Origin: a virus
Virus record (IMG/VR): IMGVR_UViG_3300042880_000420
Location: 45,033 to 109,032 of that record
Direction: 5' to 3' (one strand)
DNA: 64,000 nucleotides
A model generated the notes under the pieces. The model was given only the letters and a program-made list of their open reading frames with translations, searched no databases and was not told the DNA's origin. The position numbers were made by a program, and so were the translations under genes. Within the stretch, counting starts at the first letter, position 1. Every line of letters begins with the position of its first letter. Below are positions 23,480-56,762 of this stretch, one piece after another.

Positions 23480-24772
23480 TTAAAATAATATTTTATGTTC
23501 AAATATTCTATCAGTATTTTTTTCTACAATATCAAATGAACATCCAGCTTTTGTAGGTCCAAAGTTTGTTCCAATCCATTTAGAACCTCCAAACAAAGAC
23601 AATGCATTTCTATATCTGAAGTTATATGATTGTTCTGAAGTGTTTTTATGAAGATCACCTTTTATAAAACTTACATAAGAAACATCTGGATCTATTCTAT
23701 TATACATTAAGTATTTATTAATGTAATTCTCTGTCTTATCATTAAGATGAAGAGGAAGTCCGTGTTTCATATCTTCTGTATCTTTTCCATGAGATAACAA
23801 GAACACGTGTTTACCATAATAAATATGATCTATAAACTTCTCTTGTACAGATGTTTTAACATAGGGATATTTTGCATTAACATAAATCTCAAGTGCTCTA
23901 CTTACCATGTAGTCAAATATGCCACCATGATTAGAACATGCGTTTGATATAATGTGATAGCTTTCTGCATAATCACTTGTAAATACAACATCATAAAAGT
24001 TTTTTTCTACAGTAAGAACATTTTCAAATGCTTCTTTATCTGTCATATTTTGTGGCAGTTTATGCCCACCTCTAGTAGTTTGAGCATTCATACCATCCAT
24101 TCTATCTCCAAGATCTATAATGTATATATCACTAAATCTTTTATAAAGGTTGTGCAGATATTGTATTTCATACAACACATTATACATCCTAGATTTAAAT
24201 GTTAAAAAATTGTAATTGTTCTTGTACATTGCTTCTACATCATCTACATAAGCTGAAATGTGTTTATCTGAAGTGTATACAAATAATGCTTTTTCATTAG
24301 TTATTTTAACAGAATCTGTTCTTTTGTGCACTTGCACATTACTAAAAACTTTATTTAATATTTCATTAAAATCTTCTACATTAAGTTCATTTTCTTGCTT
24401 TTTAGTAATCATTGCAGAAATAACCCAATAGTCATTACCATTGTTTTTATGTTGTTTATTCCAATAGGAAGAAAGCTTCCATTTGGTAATGTCAATCTTT
24501 AAAATTTTTTCTATTTCTTCTGCTGTTTTTGGCTCTTCTAAAGCAATTGCTTTAATTTTTGCTGTACCTTCAGATACATTTTCAGAAAACTCAATAATCT
24601 TTTCTTCTAATACACCTATATAGGAATTTTTTTCTACATCTTCAATTGTTTTATTAATAAAAAACTGTTTTCTACTAAGGTATTCTGCAATATTAATACC
24701 TAATCTTTTAGCGCATTCTTTATTAGATTTTTTAGATTTAATAGCTTTTAAAATGTCATTATCTGAAATCAT
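23480..24772 (-). CDS. Calcineurin-like metallophosphoesterase with N-terminal HTH
   Basis: SDKH, DLGDRMDG, SNHG, HGKD and GDLH motifs; N-terminal NKECAKRLGI. Confidence 0.7.
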   Translation of the reverse strand: MISDNDILKAIKSKKSNKECAKRLGINIAEYLSRKQFFINKTIEDVEKNSYIGVLEEKIIEFSENVSEGTAKIKAIALEEPKTAEEIEKILKIDITKWKLSSYWNKQHKNNGNDYWVISAMITKKQENELNVEDFNEILNKVFSNVQVHKRTDSVKITNEKALFVYTSDKHISAYVDDVEAMYKNNYNFLTFKSRMYNVLYEIQYLHNLYKRFSDIYIIDLGDRMDGMNAQTTRGGHKLPQNMTDKEAFENVLTVEKNFYDVVFTSDYAESYHIISNACSNHGGIFDYMVSRALEIYVNAKYPYVKTSVQEKFIDHIYYGKHVFLLSHGKDTEDMKHGLPLHLNDKTENYINKYLMYNRIDPDVSYVSFIKGDLHKNTSEQSYNFRYRNALSLFGGSKWIGTNFGPTKAGCSFDIVEKNTDRIFEHKILF

Positions 24773-24844
24773 ATATTTATATTTTATATAAAGGTAAATA
24801 ATATTTTTAAAATATCAATACTTCAATGTTTGAAATGTGTTTAT

Positions 24845-24910
24845 AATTAAAGACCCCAGTTAAGAATAACTAGGGTCTTTGCCAGAAAACCAACAAACTG
24901 ACAATTTTTT
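24845..24910 (-). ncRNA. Candidate trans-acting sRNA (or 3'-UTR element) with loop UUUGUUGGUUUU; 5' end unknown, up to about 25060
   Basis: Minus strand GUCAG-UUUGUUGGUUUU-CUGGC hairpin directly before the terminator; loop complementary to start regions of several late genes. Confidence 0.5.
24849..24880 (-). terminator. Intrinsic terminator-like hairpin ending the fibre operon or sRNA
   Basis: Inverted repeat AAAGACCCCAGTTA-AGAA-TAACTAGGGTCTTT with one G-U/mismatch. Confidence 0.65.
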
Positions 24911-25064
24911 AAAAATGATTAAGTTATTTCAATACATGGTTAAGGTGGGTTTTATACTTTCACCATTGTAAATAATGTATAAGCACTTGTTCTCATAGAG
25001 GGTTTTGCTTTAATATTGTTTTAAAATTTATTTTTATAAAATGACGTAATATATTTTTTATAAA

Positions 25065-25328
25065 TTAGGGATATATTACTGTTTGCCAAGACCCGCCAAC
25101 AAACGTATATAATACATTAGTAGAAGTATCAAGTCCAAGTCTTCCTTCAACTATATTAGTTATGGGAAAAATAGATACAGATGCTCCTGTAATCAAAGAA
25201 ATACTATCCAGTGTATTTGATGTGTTTTCTATATCAGCAATAAGTTTATTAACAACAGCAATTCTGTTATTGATATCTTTTGCAGTTGCAAAATATGAAT
25301 TTTTACTTAAATTTTTTATTCCAGACAT
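25065..25328 (-). CDS. Small structural/fibre-associated protein (87 aa)
   Basis: ORF track; C-terminal LDTSTNVLYTFVGGSW resembles fibre-type motifs. Confidence 0.55.
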   Translation of the reverse strand: MSGIKNLSKNSYFATAKDINNRIAVVNKLIADIENTSNTLDSISLITGASVSIFPITNIVEGRLGLDTSTNVLYTFVGGSWQTVIYP

Positions 25329-25340
25329 TTCTTTATATTT

Positions 25341-26858
25341 TTATGTTATTGGAGCACATGGATCGCAAGGGCATGCTGTAACACAAAACTGTGCATTTAA
25401 ATATTGTGTATTTTTAATTGTATTGAGCATGTCTAAAATGTATTGTTTAGAAAAAACACTACATAAAGATGAATTAATATTTTCTAATATTTCTATACTA
25501 TTAGGATTTTCAATTTCTAATTGATTATTATTTGTAACAAATAAATTATTATTTTCACATGTTGCATTTAAATTTCCTACATATACTGCGCATTCAGCAG
25601 GAATATAATAAGCACATCCTTCAGTATCACATTGTACAACAGGATCTTGTGGATTACAATCTTCTGTATAAGGATTACATGGTAAAGTGCTAAATATCTC
25701 TACATCTCCGTATAATGTACTTACGCTATTTGTAGCAAAAGCTCGTATATAATATGTTTTGTCGTTTGTAAGACCAGACAATTTTGTAATAAATGGATTT
25801 GTTTGTGCATAATTAAAATCATTTATTACATTAGAATTACTTGTAGTAGGTAGTATTTGTGTACTACTCCAACATATTCCACGTGCTGTAATTGCTACAC
25901 CACCATTAAAAACAACATCACAACCTGTAATAGCTGTATTACTTGTTATAGAATACGGAGGAACAGTAATTACAGTGGGGCCTCCCAATGTTGCTACACT
26001 AAAAATTTCTCCATAAGTTGTACCATTTGTATTAGTAGCAAATGCTCTAATATAATAAGTTGTACCAGCTGTAAGACCACTAACTGTACCAGTAAATGCA
26101 CCTGTACCAGTTCCCATTGTAGTGTTAGTAGCAGAAGACATATCTATACTAAGACTTCTTTGTATTCCTCTAGAAGTAACAGTAGAGCCACCACTTGCTG
26201 TAACATTACCACCAGCAACAAAAGATGTAGATGTTAAACTTGTTATTGTAGGGCTTGTAGTAACAGAAGGAGTAATAGAACTTGTAGTAAATGTTTTTAC
26301 ATCACCATATGATACTCCAGATATTGTCTCTACATAACATCTTATTTTATATATTGTATTAGGCAATAAACCTAATAAAATACTTGTAAACACTCCACCA
26401 ACAGAAACATCAGTAGTTTTACTATCATTAATATCTGGATCTGGATTTGTTGATATATCCCAACATACACCTACGTTACTAATGGTTCCTACAATTCCTG
26501 TAAAAGAACCTCCGGAAATAGCAGTGCTAGATGTTATAGAACTAGCGGCAGTTGTTACTAAACTAGGTGTAGTGAATGACCACTGATTTCCATAATATAC
26601 ATTAGACAAAGCATCAATAATATATGCTCTAACATAGTATGTAGAACCTGCACTAAGAGATGTTAAATTTAATGAGTAATTAGCTGTACTATTTCCTGCA
26701 ATACTGTTTGTAGAATTAGCAGTGGTAGGATTACCAGTTGTATTCCAACACAAACCTCTAAATGCAACAGTACCACTACCTATAATAGAGTTACCTCCAC
26801 TAGTTGCACTAGTAGAAGTAATTGCTGTAATATTATTAGTGTTAAGACTGTATGCCAT
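25341..26858 (-). CDS. Fibronectin type III repeat protein (about 4 FN3) with C-terminal Cys-rich module
   Basis: Repeated T...TS..SGG...GxCW...L.....YY[VI]RA[YF]...YG....F.T units. Confidence 0.8.
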   Translation of the reverse strand: MAYSLNTNNITAITSTSATSGGNSIIGSGTVAFRGLCWNTTGNPTTANSTNSIAGNSTANYSLNLTSLSAGSTYYVRAYIIDALSNVYYGNQWSFTTPSLVTTAASSITSSTAISGGSFTGIVGTISNVGVCWDISTNPDPDINDSKTTDVSVGGVFTSILLGLLPNTIYKIRCYVETISGVSYGDVKTFTTSSITPSVTTSPTITSLTSTSFVAGGNVTASGGSTVTSRGIQRSLSIDMSSATNTTMGTGTGAFTGTVSGLTAGTTYYIRAFATNTNGTTYGEIFSVATLGGPTVITVPPYSITSNTAITGCDVVFNGGVAITARGICWSSTQILPTTSNSNVINDFNYAQTNPFITKLSGLTNDKTYYIRAFATNSVSTLYGDVEIFSTLPCNPYTEDCNPQDPVVQCDTEGCAYYIPAECAVYVGNLNATCENNNLFVTNNNQLEIENPNSIEILENINSSLCSVFSKQYILDMLNTIKNTQYLNAQFCVTACPCDPCAPIT

Positions 26859-36805: not shown

Positions 36806-37393
36806 TTAATATTGGTTTTTGTGACAATCTTTACATCCTCCTATATATTTATCAAGTCGTTTTTTAGCATATGTTAATAATTCCATAGCTAAATTAGGAT
36901 CGTGACAATCTTCTGCTTTTACTTTTGCCGCATCAAAATAAGATTTAATTAACCTTAATTCGTTTAATCTTGCTCTTATTTCTACAGGGGGTTCACACGT
37001 TGCTAATTCAAGTTTACATAATTGTTGATTATAAACATTATAAGTTTGTGTCAATCTTAAATGATAATATTCAACATAAACTTGATCGTTAGGACTTACA
37101 GAATATTTAATTTTATAAATACCATCAGGTAATGCAGGTGCTTGTGGAGTACAATTACCAGAAATAATTCCTAAAGTACAAGCATTTAACACCAAATTAA
37201 ATGATGCCATACCGCTACTAGCATATGTTGTAACATCTATTTCAGCTGGTTCTGTAAATCCAGGAGAAGTAATTTGTAATGTAGCACATTTAACATCAAG
37301 TCCTTGTTGGTAAATACTTGCATCAACAACTCTAAAAATGCTTACATTATTAGTTTCGGGAATATCTAAATACAATTGATGTTGTGCTGGCAT
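36806..37393 (-). CDS. Tail hub-like structural protein (195 aa)
   Basis: LQITSPGF...LPDGIYKIKYSVSPN; gene order. Confidence 0.55.
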   Translation of the reverse strand: MPAQHQLYLDIPETNNVSIFRVVDASIYQQGLDVKCATLQITSPGFTEPAEIDVTTYASSGMASFNLVLNACTLGIISGNCTPQAPALPDGIYKIKYSVSPNDQVYVEYYHLRLTQTYNVYNQQLCKLELATCEPPVEIRARLNELRLIKSYFDAAKVKAEDCHDPNLAMELLTYAKKRLDKYIGGCKDCHKNQY

Positions 37394-41932: not shown

Positions 41933-41956
41933 GTTTGGTTTTGGTTTGGTGAGTTG

Positions 41957-44449: not shown

Positions 44450-45682
44450 TTATCGTTTAAAAATATTTGTTTGTCTAGGAATTTTTCTAACCTGTTCACT
44501 TTGCGATGTATTCACAGAAGATGTAGCTTTGTTTCTTGATTGTTCAGTTTTAAGTTGTCGTACAGTTTGTTCTACCGCTTGGTTCTTACCTTGCTTCATC
44601 AATGAAGATCTATAATCATCAGGATTAGAAAGTAACCACAAAGCTTCTGCTATAAGATCGTATCTTGGTTCCACATATTGGTATTTTTCCAATAAGTGTC
44701 CTAAAAGATTTGTAGGATTACCATTTATAGAAGGATATTGAGGTTGTGTTAATCCGTTATATAAGAATGACTGCACCTTTTTATCAAGTTTTACGCCCCC
44801 CAATTCACCTTGTCTTAATGTTTCAAAAACATTTTGTACATAAGCATCAGCGGCTTGTTCTTGCTGTTTTCTCATTATTTCTTGCTCTGCAAGTTTAGAC
44901 TGAATCATCTCTTCTTGCATAGCATCCAACTTAGGTTTAAATTGCTTTGCTTTCTTTTCCAGTTGACCAAGATCTTTCCAGTTGTTTACTTCTTCTTCAA
45001 TTTCATCATTGTCACCAAAGTTGGTTGCTTGAAGATAAGAGCGTACAATTGATTCTTGATCACCGTCTGATTCAGGATTTAATTCTCTCACCTGCTCTAC
45101 TTTAGCTAATGCTTGAAATAATCCTTTAAGATCTTGTCCTCCATCTGCTACATATTTAGCAGCATACTGAAGTTCTTCCGGAAGACTTTCAAAAAACTCA
45201 GCAGGTGTGTGAGAAGCTATTTCATTTTTTATATTAGAAATATTAGCTTGCCAAAGCTCATCCAAATCTTTTTCATTCAAAGAACTAATATAGTCGTCTA
45301 AAGTTTGTTTCTCTTCATCATAGTCGTCAAAAGCAAACATTTCCTTAGACTCAATTCTTTTTTTAAGAAAGCCTACAAGAGATGATTTTTCTGTTTTAGG
45401 TCTTCCTCTCTGTACTGTTTCTTCTTCTGAAGAACTATCATTTACAATTTCTTCATCTACAATACTTTCAATTACATCTGTTTGGCTAGGTTGTTCTGGT
45501 TCGTCCAAAAAAGAAACATCTGTTTGTGAACTAGCAAAAATATTAGGTTTTTCCTCTGTTTCTTTTGTAGAAGAAGCTGAGGTCATGACACTATCCGCTC
45601 CAGGTGCACCAATCCAGCTGTCTATATCAAGATCTACTTGGTTAACAGATGTTATATCTGTTGGGTTGTTGTTGGTTTCCAT
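44450..45682 (-). CDS. Acidic scaffold-like protein (410 aa)
   Basis: Acidic N-terminus and coiled coil; between portal and MCP. Confidence 0.65.
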   Translation of the reverse strand: METNNNPTDITSVNQVDLDIDSWIGAPGADSVMTSASSTKETEEKPNIFASSQTDVSFLDEPEQPSQTDVIESIVDEEIVNDSSSEEETVQRGRPKTEKSSLVGFLKKRIESKEMFAFDDYDEEKQTLDDYISSLNEKDLDELWQANISNIKNEIASHTPAEFFESLPEELQYAAKYVADGGQDLKGLFQALAKVEQVRELNPESDGDQESIVRSYLQATNFGDNDEIEEEVNNWKDLGQLEKKAKQFKPKLDAMQEEMIQSKLAEQEIMRKQQEQAADAYVQNVFETLRQGELGGVKLDKKVQSFLYNGLTQPQYPSINGNPTNLLGHLLEKYQYVEPRYDLIAEALWLLSNPDDYRSSLMKQGKNQAVEQTVRQLKTEQSRNKATSSVNTSQSEQVRKIPRQTNIFKR

Positions 45683-45862
45683 GTTAATTATTGGTTTTAA
45701 TTACATTATTAATATACGAATTAAACTCTAAAGATTTATAACAAAATGTTTTTGTCATATTTTGTTTCGGATAATAAGGCTATAATTTTTAAATGTTGTT
45801 TAATACTTTTAATATATCTTTTAAAACAAGAACGTAATTTACTTTACAAATAATTAAAAGCA

Positions 45863-52326: not shown

Positions 52327-53140
52327 TTTTTAAATCTTTTAAATAATTAATAAGTAATATTACTTCTTGTTTTAAATATGGTACATTATATTGTACAATC
52401 TCTTGTACAATAGGATTACCATCTCTGTCTATCTCCACAATTGGATTACCGAATTTATCCTTGTCTACTTGTTTAAATATAATGTGATGAAGATTCATCT
52501 CTCCAGGTTTATATAAAGGATTGTGCTTAATAATCATATACATGTACATACTAAGTTGTAATGCATAATGATTAAAATTAGAATCATCTAAATGATTAAC
52601 AGGAGCTGACATCTTTTGACTCTTTCCTGAATAATCTCTAAATGATTCTTTTTTAATTTCTTTGTTAGTTTTAAAATCTATGATATTCACTTTTTTATTG
52701 ACCACCTCTACAAGATCAGATTGACCACAAAGTCCTACAGATTTTAAATACACCATATGTTCTGGATAAATACCCTCTGTAAGTTTTTGTTCTGGTGCAT
52801 TCTTACTGCCATCTATATTTGTGTTGGGAGCATAAATAGGAATATTAACACCTTCTCTGCCAATATATTCAAGACCGCATATATCAGCTTCTCTTTGATT
52901 GTGATACCATGTGCCAAGATCCGTTGCTCTTTTAGCCTCAGTTTTCCAAGTATCTTTGATATCTTCTGGATTCATCCCATACCACTTTGATTTTTTAGAC
53001 CTACTCACTTTTAAAGCTGTAGCATCTGCATCAAATGGTTGTTTAAATTTAGATATAAAACTTGTTACAGAAGTCCATTCTATATCTGCTCCATCTATAG
53101 AGACATATTTATGTAATTCTGGTATAAATTGTAAAGCCAT
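52313..53140 (-). CDS. PD-(D/E)XK (Cas4/RecB-like) nuclease
   Basis: SVTSFI, GTWYH, EHMV, GQSDL, IIDFKT, YALQLSMY; start reassigned to MALQF at 53140. Confidence 0.82.
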   Translation of the reverse strand: MALQFIPELHKYVSIDGADIEWTSVTSFISKFKQPFDADATALKVSRSKKSKWYGMNPEDIKDTWKTEAKRATDLGTWYHNQREADICGLEYIGREGVNIPIYAPNTNIDGSKNAPEQKLTEGIYPEHMVYLKSVGLCGQSDLVEVVNKKVNIIDFKTNKEIKKESFRDYSGKSQKMSAPVNHLDDSNFNHYALQLSMYMYMIIKHNPLYKPGEMNLHHIIFKQVDKDKFGNPIVEIDRDGNPIVQEIVQYNVPYLKQEVILLINYLKDLKNGKN

Positions 53141-53142
53141 AA

Positions 53143-53457
53143 TTATAATTGTTGGTTTAACATATCCTCTTCTTTTTCTGTTAAAATAGCTTTCCATTTA
53201 GGAATAGGAAGAGGACATCCTGAACTTAATGCTCTTGTTTTCAATGACAAACTACATCCACAACCTCCAGTATTCTTATTGCAACATGGTGCTGTACCAG
53301 GTACCAAGCACCCTGTACCCTCATCATCATAATTAATACATTTTTTACATAAATTTAATCTAGCATATGCAATTTCTTCAACATGTTCTTTCTTAAATAT
53401 GTTGTTTCTTATACCTTCAAGAATTGACTTTCTATTATTAAATATTTGTTTTAGCAT
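53143..53457 (-). CDS. Cys-rich Zn-binding protein
   Basis: RLNLCKKC...CC...CGC...K.R...CP...KW. Confidence 0.65.
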   Translation of the reverse strand: MLKQIFNNRKSILEGIRNNIFKKEHVEEIAYARLNLCKKCINYDDEGTGCLVPGTAPCCNKNTGGCGCSLSLKTRALSSGCPLPIPKWKAILTEKEEDMLNQQL

Positions 53458-53824
53458 AATTTCTTTTTCGATGTATTTTTATAAATTCTTTTCGTTGCAT
53501 TTCACTTTTACACATATCCATCATTTTTTCAATGTAAGTTAATTTATTACGTAATTGTTCTATAATCAACTCACTGCGTTTAGACCCACGTTGTGCTATA
53601 CTATCTATCATAAAAAGATATTTCTCCTTTTCTTTTTCTAATATCCAATGCTTTATAGTAAAATTACCAAAAGCACTGACATGTACAATAGGAGCTTTTA
53701 ATTCTGAAAGAGCACCTCGTACATCTTTCCAATATGTTGTTACAATATCGTTAACAATATTTACAGGTAGATTTAACTCCATTGCTGTAGATACAATAAG
53801 GTCTTTAGCTTTTGTTGGTTTCAA
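53438..53824 (-). CDS. HU/IHF-like DNA-binding protein (TTG start)
   Basis: KDLIVSTAMELNLP...VHVSAFGNFTIK. Confidence 0.7.
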   Translation of the reverse strand: MKPTKAKDLIVSTAMELNLPVNIVNDIVTTYWKDVRGALSELKAPIVHVSAFGNFTIKHWILEKEKEKYLFMIDSIAQRGSKRSELIIEQLRNKLTYIEKMMDMCKSEMQRKEFIKIHRKRNYAKTNI

Positions 53825-54183: not shown

Positions 54184-54537
54184 TTACTTTTTTAATGCTC
54201 TATTAGATATAGGTGCTTTTTTCTCCTCTTTATCAGCAATCTCTGTTGGAATGCCTATTACATCACCCACCTTTAAACCTTGTTCCTTTAATTCTGGGTT
54301 GGCTTCAAGATCTTCTTCTGTAAGGGTGTGTTCTGCAACAGCATTAGAACCTTCATGTGGGGTAGAAATTTGAGCAATTGTATACATTGCTTTTACATAT
54401 TCTGCACGTGCAACAGCAATCCTTGTATCAAGCTCTTGTAATTCAGCTTGTACTTTCTTAAATTCAATTTGCTCTTGCATCCATGTAAGCATTTGCTCCT
54501 TTGTAGGAGCTGCATCTTGTTTTTGTTGGTTTTCCAT
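54184..54537 (-). CDS. Hypothetical protein (117 aa), first gene of the packaging operon
   Basis: Coiled coil plus HTLTEEDLEANPELKEQGLKVGDVI module. Confidence 0.65.
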   Translation of the reverse strand: MENQQKQDAAPTKEQMLTWMQEQIEFKKVQAELQELDTRIAVARAEYVKAMYTIAQISTPHEGSNAVAEHTLTEEDLEANPELKEQGLKVGDVIGIPTEIADKEEKKAPISNRALKK

Positions 54538-56702: not shown

Positions 56703-56762
56703 TTTCTGTCCATAAACTGTTGTTTATGCTGATGATGACCTAATTGAGGGTCGAAACAGAAA
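56703..56762 (+). ncRNA. Type III hammerhead ribozyme
   Basis: Stem III UUUCUGU/ACAGAAA; GUC cleavage triplet (cut after 56710); stem I CAUAAAC/GUUUAUG; core CUGAUGA(U); stem II GACC/GGUC; GAAA. Confidence 0.9.

Follow-up and report, generated by a model that had tools for sequence, protein, structure and literature searches.

A conserved hairpin loop and a complementary start-region tag in crAss-like phages: a candidate antisense regulator of phage translation

Results

Genomic setting of the hairpin

The phage studied here is an uncultured freshwater crAss-like phage. What we call the window is the whole stretch of DNA that was analysed, 64 kb forming the right-hand part of a 109-kb virus record, in which all genes from 55367 down to 3 are carried by the minus strand. 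The sequencing runs in which the phage is found are all DNA, mostly from lake water, and a search for named relatives at the DNA level gave no match in the phage collection. The locus under study contains the following features:

25065 to 26858, minus strand: gene for a 505-aa protein with an FN3 domain, then an 87-aa ORF; final genes of the upstream (tail-side) operon
24880 to 24903, minus strand: proposed seed hairpin, a 6-bp stem (UGUCAG/CUGGCA) closing a 12-nt loop
24886 to 24897, minus strand: the loop, UUUGUUGGUUUU, as proposed seed (minus strand UGUCAG-UUUGUUGGUUUU-CUGGCA)
24841 to 24879, minus strand: terminator-like hairpin with a short U/A tail; 13-bp stem, loop within AUUCUU
23480 to 24772, minus strand: 430-aa gene downstream of the hairpin (ATG at 24772), with metallophosphoesterase-like motifs

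In the window, 160 nt separate the final stop of the tail-side operon (25065) from the hairpin. Several intergenic gaps of 130-240 nt lie between the start of the capsid operon and the hairpin, which are about 21 kb apart. On the other side, the 430-aa gene is the first of a block encoding virion-internal proteins and the virion RNA polymerase. Its product carries the motifs GD.MDG, NH and GDLH together with an N-terminal extension of about 120 aa, and found no match in Pfam. In phage phi14:2 the counterpart, g075, bears the annotation calcineurin-like phosphoesterase and is served by a middle promoter. If phi14:2 is a guide, the 430-aa gene probably heads a middle operon with its own promoter, the genes upstream being late. 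No promoter-like site scoring above shuffles was found upstream of the hairpin in the window.

The original prediction for this locus, made from the letters of the DNA, was that of a 5-bp hairpin directly before a terminator hairpin, with a loop complementary to a motif found at gene starts. We confirmed both the hairpin and the complementary motif, the sequence being as described, with a stem of 6 bp rather than 5. A 78-nt stretch folds as two hairpins (-25.3 kcal/mol, z = -5.4 against shuffles), of which the second, a 13-bp GC-containing hairpin at 24850-24879, stands directly 3' of the seed hairpin. As to its reading as a terminator, the stem is strong and the homologous hairpins of relatives combine a GC-rich stem with a T-run of 5-10, but the U-tract in the window is weak and a consensus terminator scan makes no call there. 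No upstream segment complementary to the 5' arm of the terminator, which would allow an alternative antiterminator pairing, was visible. Comparison of the whole 64-kb window with Rfam release 15 gave no match at the gathering threshold, and over 24780-25080 the best weak matches reached 12-32 bits against thresholds of 36-81. Elsewhere in the window, a candidate type III hammerhead ribozyme stretch (56703-56762) likewise had no Rfam match at gathering.

Conservation of the hairpin in relatives

Relatives were collected with a search by the 430-aa protein and then a profile search, which yielded 77 viral contigs with protein identities of 24-60%. At 76 of the 77 loci, within the roughly 130 nt upstream of the gene, we found a hairpin with the same loop followed by a GC-rich hairpin with a T-run. 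It is present in one copy per genome and, in every relative, upstream of the homologue of the 430-aa gene. Judged by its capsid proteins, which are 74-95% identical, the clade is shallower than the divergence of the 430-aa protein would imply. It is large: a capsid-protein relative is encoded on at least 589 IMG/VR contigs, with identities of at least 78% among the 80 matches listed.

The hairpin was found in 45 distinct versions, in which stems of 5-9 bp with unrelated sequences close a loop of the form UUU(U)GUUGGUUU(U), 10-15 nt long and mostly 12. These versions were folded with the core held unpaired. All 45 distinct sequences have the same loop core, UUGGUU, and conservation of UUUGUUGGUUU among them is at least 90%. 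In a model-based alignment, which was itself fitted to the model, all 8 model pairs are changed on both sides and 84% of the cells pair, compared with 56% in shuffles and 26-41% with a slid partner; the covariation of the stem is also evident by eye in the versions folded separately. The recurrence of loop, terminator and covarying stem in relatives, which had been put forward as a check, is borne out, and a conserved core held single-stranded by covarying stems is what would be looked for in the seed of a base-pairing sRNA. The inner five pairs comprise 18 G.U and no A.C, which assigns the structure to the mRNA-sense strand. Among relatives, variation in the stem is independent of variation in the terminator.

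At most of the 76 loci the stem lies 5-15 nt behind the stop of a long ORF on the same strand, which makes the element the 3' UTR of the upstream operon; as in sRNAs derived from 3' UTRs, it lies on the same strand right behind a stop codon, with no room for a promoter of its own. The 160-nt gap of the window is atypical.

Two further features of the region were observed. The loop of the terminator hairpin, AUUCUU (24863-24868 in the window), is shared by this phage, Leptolyngbya phage Lbo-JY46 (L412:1478-1500) and locus L422 (870-895), with a covarying stem; it reads UUUCUA in one large subclade and a reverse-complement-like AGAAAU in others, and may be a second recognition site. In a marine subclade (L074-L096, about 1365-1410), the seed hairpin sits within an outer 4-bp helix, CAAC...GUUG, and the terminator is preceded by a conserved spacer, AAACGUUGG(G/A)AG, which is purine-rich and SD-like in some members.

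Complementary tags at translation starts

Words complementary to the loop, hereafter tags, were found at the following gene starts of the window:

54522 to 54533, minus strand: AAAACCAACAAA at +4 of a 117-aa gene (ATG at 54537); 12 of 12 bases complementary to the loop, duplex -13.4 kcal/mol
53810 to 53821, minus strand: AAACCAACAAAA right after the TTG start of a 128-aa gene (53824); duplex -13.6 kcal/mol
53149 to 53158, minus strand: AAACCAACAA, 9 nt before ATG 53140 of a PD-(D/E)XK exonuclease gene; duplex -11.7 kcal/mol
45669 to 45698, minus strand: AAAACCAATAA at -16 and AAACCAACAA at +4 of the 410-aa gene that precedes the capsid gene (ATG at 45682), two tags in all
41933 to 41952, minus strand: complementary site in the leader ACCAAACCAAAACCAAAC, just 5' of ATG 41932 of a 337-aa gene
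36810 to 36819, minus strand: AAAACCAATA at -15 of a 46-aa gene (ATG 36804); duplex -9.6 kcal/mol

The perfect or near-perfect sites of the window give duplexes of -11.7 to -13.6 kcal/mol; the capsid gene and the 914-aa and 741-aa genes had no good site in a duplex scan of the window. All the complementary sites listed in the original prediction exist (54522-54533, 53811-53821, 53149-53158, 45669-45678, 45688-45698, about 41933-41952 and 36810-36819). The first of them had been counted as a perfect 13-nt match at 54522-54534; the 12 loop bases do match, and the 13th is a base of the stem. As for the genes, the nuclease label is backed by a PHROG exonuclease match, which begins at residue 20 of the longer ORF and so favours the start at 53140, and the labels 'HU-like' and 'scaffold' drew no support from Pfam or PHROGs.

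Several of these sites are kept in orthologues. Considering 80 capsid-centred loci, the gene before the capsid gene bears the tag in 60 of 66 distinct leaders; where the upstream tag is damaged, a copy often stands at +3 (ATG-GAAAACCAA), in another reading frame. Orthologues of the 337-aa gene, which follows the capsid gene, have AAAACCAA at about -13 in 10 genomes, and the orthologue of the 128-aa gene in relative genome G001 keeps AAACCAA at the same place. Complementary sites conserved at several mRNA starts are a hallmark of base-pairing sRNAs, and the occurrence of the motif both in leaders and, in other frames, in first codons agrees with the RNA-level selection that had been proposed. 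Judged from these sequences, the targets would number roughly 6-10 genes of mixed class per genome, including the gene before the capsid gene, the 337-aa gene after it, the PD-(D/E)XK exonuclease gene and small genes with no assigned function, rather than the many late, packaging and capsid genes originally envisaged.

Upstream of the tag by 8-12 nt, and about 45 nt before the start of the gene preceding the capsid gene, dozens of relatives (L331-L410; window 45700-45740) also have a promoter-like block, GTATATT-N4-6-(A)TGTAGA. This block may be the late promoter of the capsid operon.

Enrichment and position of the tag

The start regions are A-rich and G-poor (G 5-6%) and have no SD. Among the windows from -30 to +25 of 46 genes, AAACCAACAA is the commonest 10-mer. 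Its four minus-strand copies in the window all lie within about 20 nt of a start codon, with none elsewhere on the strand. Over the 109-kb genome, six of six sense copies are found at -22 to +39 of a same-strand start, the starts of two plus-strand genes outside the window among them, and the seventh copy is the loop. To place these counts on a composition-matched footing, words of identical base content were compared at the starts of 1430 genes from 12 genomes: among the 84 arrangements of A6C3, the four subwords of AAAACCAACAAA occupy ranks 1-4, being present in 14-23 genes each against a mean of 3.6. Composition is thus not the explanation for the enrichment. Likewise, in 15 hairpin-bearing genomes (this one excluded), AAACCAA stands upstream of 72 genes, compared with 5.2 expected from gene bodies. 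It is the only 7-mer not made purely of A and T among the 13 most enriched, with AAAACCA at rank 14, and it comes top among 21 words of the same composition, of which the non-overlapping ones reach 7-23 genes. Comparing the motif near starts with its occurrence elsewhere, another check named in the original prediction, therefore shows an enrichment that persists once composition is controlled.

Duplex energies were less informative. When windows were counted against shuffled loops at -8 kcal/mol, phi14:2, which is devoid of the hairpin, appeared 'enriched' and hairpin-bearing genome G009 did not; a stricter test at -9 kcal/mol gave 12 windows against 4.7 +/- 3.0 for genome G000. Since such counts do not discriminate, we relied on exact-word statistics.

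The start of the tag word peaks sharply at -13 to -11, with the CC at about -9. The distance from tag to ATG is tight (-10 to -14), and that from tag to the TAnnTTTG box ranges over 5-35 nt. This indicates that the tag is a start-region signal and not part of a promoter. A role as a promoter or initiator element was ruled out by this variable box distance and by the copies found between cistrons and within coding sequence.

Hairpin-less phages, hosts and a sister lineage

The hairpin was absent from phi14:2, crAss001 and MT835492; a weak 17-bit match in phi14:2 was discarded, as it is without the loop. These three hairpin-less Crassvirales have 0-2 tagged genes each, against 1-12, or 2.8-14% of genes, in 16 genomes with the hairpin; all of the latter rank above all of the former (Mann-Whitney p = 0.001). 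In three Bacteroidota genomes no match to the hairpin scored above 26 bits. The tag peak was absent in two Bacteroidota genome samples with equally A-rich starts, and a general Bacteroidota start signal is thereby ruled out for the two sampled genomes. The idea that the loop mimics 16S rRNA was also set aside: UUUGUUGGU is found in a few Bacteroidota 16S genes, in some taxa only, and inside an internal helix. A related observation is that UUUGUUGGUGAGG, which has 9 nt in common with the loop, is present on the 5' side of an internal 16S helix in a few Bacteroidota taxa (L193, L198, L215); we judged this a coincidence.

No close relative is in culture; by capsid protein, the nearest cultured one is Leptolyngbya phage Lbo-JY46 (PP438436.1), at 28.6% identity. 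It has the element at the same place (91612-91642, minus strand), upstream of a 428-aa homologue of the 430-aa protein: an A/T-only 7-bp stem, the loop UUUGUUGGUUG and then a terminator. A second member of this lineage, contig G022, also bears the hairpin element. No tag enrichment was found in either Lbo-JY46 or contig G022. These results indicate that the hairpin predates the tags, and that something other than a large regulon keeps the loop unchanged in the tag-less lineage; candidates are a small number of key targets, a protein and another RNA.

The lineage has other particularities. About 50 nt upstream of the hairpin, within a non-coding gap of 300-400 nt, it has a conserved block of about 35 nt, ACTCAAAGTTACGA..TTTTTTTCG.ACATTTCCAAATTT (L412:1540-1610, L422:760-800), and L422 has a second copy of TTTGTTGGTT 130 nt upstream. 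As far as these sequences tell, the RNA of the Lbo-JY46 lineage may be an independent gene. Moreover, Lbo-JY46 has a cyanobacterial host on record, yet shows Bacteroidota-style TAnnTTTG boxes and SD-less A-rich starts as this clade does; it would be worth re-examining which host the group as a whole is assigned to.

Discussion

The two most conspicuous short conserved motifs of these genomes are exact complements of each other, and the tags are found only together with the hairpin, which makes pairing the most economical reading. We propose a phage regulatory RNA in which the hairpin does the work and which would be either the 3' end of the tail-side operon transcript or a fragment of about 60-70 nt cut from it and containing both hairpins. 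Its exposed G/U-rich loop would pair with a phage-private C/A-rich tag, (A)AAACCAA(CAA), which some 6-10 phage genes have within the stretch covered by the ribosome, from about -20 to +15. Owing to this position, pairing would alter the translation of the tagged messages. The likeliest effect would be repression through an occluded start region, comparable to the action of GcvB on C/A-rich enhancers and of GibS in Bacteroides. Occlusion is favoured because only the loop is universally conserved, because tags may stand anywhere in the footprint, coding sequence included, and because the leaders are already unstructured. That loop and tag pair functionally in this clade, whatever the sign of the effect, seems to us slightly better than an even bet given the sequence comparisons; the more specific proposal of a GcvB-like antisense seed hairpin acting on the translation starts of phage genes is one on which we are evenly divided. 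We infer that the RNA accumulates and that the pairing takes place in the cell, and the sign of the effect is inferred in the same way. With regard to timing, and again by analogy with phi14:2, the RNA would be made with the late tail messages and would act on a mixed set of genes. Because the hairpin came first, genes were probably brought under an RNA already in place by the later acquisition of tags; the pair of C's within a leader otherwise rich in A gives the impression of being there for G-C pairing with the seed.

The main rival to this proposal is a 3'-end or boundary element with a loop that a conserved protein or a host factor recognises, for instance in transcript stability, in processing or in the control of read-through into the downstream virion-protein operon, with the AAACCAA tags being an unrelated, phage-specific start signal. 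The element keeps the same place, an operon boundary next to the terminator and ahead of the 430-aa gene, in the tag-less Lbo-JY46 lineage as well; this favours the rival, and so does the partial conservation of the terminator loop (AUUCUU / UUUCUA), which hints at protein contacts. The behaviour of the loop variants points the same way. No compensatory loop and target changes were found across the relatives: the variants UUUA, UUUUC and UUUUAUU before UUGG have no mirror in the base after AACCAA, and a genome with the loop UUUA|UUGG still has AACCAAC at its targets. Many standard-loop genomes have an A after AACCAA, unable to pair with the loop G, so that most sites offer a core of 7-8 bp only; the case of G001 as loop/target compensation is anecdotal at best. 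A 12-nt hairpin loop, in addition, could not form a full 12-bp helix without strain, a further point against our proposal. On the other hand, a protein-read element gives no account of the exact reverse complementarity between the invariant core and the most enriched non-A/T start word, or of the confinement of the tags to hairpin-bearing genomes; nor is the alternative pairing with the terminator arm that an antiterminator would use visible in the sequence. We consider this explanation rather unlikely, though it deserves to be taken seriously. Plain coincidence between a U-rich loop and A-rich starts could be invoked as well, both motifs being of low complexity and energy-based counts being unspecific. 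It would have to account for AAACCAA topping the 21 words of its composition at starts and for a tag that tracks the hairpin-bearing clade, and we find it hardly credible.

Pairing could also act in other ways than by occlusion. The loop-tag helix might replace the SD/anti-SD helix or protect the leader, and so favour phage messages in a non-SD host. The tag does sit exactly at the SD position, the start regions have no SD of their own, and structural genes beside the capsid gene, presumably highly expressed, are among those marked. Against activation, only the loop is conserved across clades, leaving no candidate module for docking to the 30S subunit, the tags at +3 to +15 in coding sequence are where an SD-like helix would fail, and the A-rich, unstructured leaders have no inhibitory fold to open. 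This makes activation improbable in our view, and its stronger form, a trans-acting 'portable anti-SD' that steers SD-blind host ribosomes to chosen phage messages, very improbable; for the anti-SD-like guide of the original prediction, the SD-like position of the tag is the one argument. Alternatively, the 3'-terminal loop might fold back in cis on the tagged 5' leader of the same late transcript of about 21 kb and, as in the fold-back inhibition of hok mRNA, set the stability or translatability of the full-length message. Of all tags, the best conserved is indeed the one in the leader of the gene that opens the capsid operon, and the hairpin ends this same-strand train of genes. The two are nevertheless some 21 kb apart, the 130-240-nt gaps between them may hold terminators or promoters, and opposite-strand genes elsewhere in the genome are tagged too, and we hold a cis fold-back of this kind to be most unlikely. 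A function in single-stranded DNA, as an N4-early-type hairpin promoter for the virion RNA polymerase or as a priming or replication signal, finds an argument in the giant RNA polymerase that these phages package: the homologue that has been characterised shows a preference for single-stranded templates, and is not known to have an early promoter motif. DNA hairpins, too, tolerate G.T pairs. N4-type promoters come as several copies before early genes, with a stem of 5-7 bp and a 3-nt loop, whereas here a single copy with a loop of 11-13 nt stands at a late/middle operon boundary, a same-strand terminator follows immediately, and the complementary tags would have no reason to exist. We therefore hold a DNA function to be most unlikely.

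For an antisense seed hairpin acting by occlusion, the closest known system is GcvB. Sharma and colleagues are said to have described in 2007 how its G/U-rich R1 silences through ACA-type C/A-rich enhancing elements. As in GcvB, a single regulator with a G/U-rich single-stranded seed, the most conserved part of the RNA, would address C/A-rich words in or just upstream of the ribosome-binding region of many mRNAs. This enterobacterial sRNA silences through C/A-rich translation-enhancing elements recognised by its G/U-rich seed R1 (PMC3879156). GcvB is nonetheless an RNA of about 200 nt, Hfq-dependent and chromosomal, with its own promoter and a linear seed; the phage element is a minimal hairpin loop with a terminator in a phage 3' UTR, without sequence or Rfam relationship to GcvB, and the phage hosts probably lack both Hfq and SD pairing. 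A precedent for repression by an sRNA at SD-less Bacteroidota starts is GibS of Bacteroides thetaiotaomicron, which, like other trans-acting sRNAs of that species, shows that SD-less mRNAs can be repressed by pairing across the translation start with neither Hfq nor ProQ (PMC7366714). GibS differs in being a host RNA with a 30-50-nt unstructured 5' seed, two known targets and no loop seed (PMC7366714).

The arrangement of the element resembles that of 3'-UTR-derived sRNAs, in which the seed and the mRNA's own terminator come right after the stop codon and are produced along with the parent mRNA, although the hairpin in the window is 160 nt from the stop. Such sRNAs, for instance CpxQ, DapZ, SroC and MicL, are released by RNase E and act with Hfq. 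Phages also encode antisense RNAs that act on their own genome, such as the c4 RNA of P1/P7, the CI RNA of P4 and VpdS of vibriophage VP882. In c4 and CI RNAs, as proposed here, hairpin loops pair with repeated complementary boxes over phage ribosome-binding sites. These three RNAs are immunity or lysis-lysogeny switches of temperate phages with one to few targets, whereas the present phage is a crAss-like phage of virulent type whose tag is spread over structural and DNA-metabolism genes. T4 RegA, finally, is a protein translational repressor that reads a short A-rich word at the start of many phage mRNAs; here, too, one phage factor would read a short A-rich start word, the candidate reader being an RNA loop and not a protein.

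Our literature search found no description of this element or of any Crassvirales regulatory RNA, and nothing on Lbo-JY46. If the pairing is real, it would, as far as this search shows, be the first regulatory RNA in crAss-like phages, and it would offer a compact and readily testable model for the control of translation in non-SD hosts. Tag and hairpin are also practical markers, in annotating these genomes, for start codons and for operon ends. An 11-nt loop frozen across phages with capsid proteins only 29% identical would, should it prove to bind a protein, still mark a strongly selected interaction. If it pairs with the tags, a large and abundant environmental clade of crAss-like phages would run a private post-transcriptional code, in which one tiny RNA hairpin reads the short tag that selected genes have where the ribosome binds.
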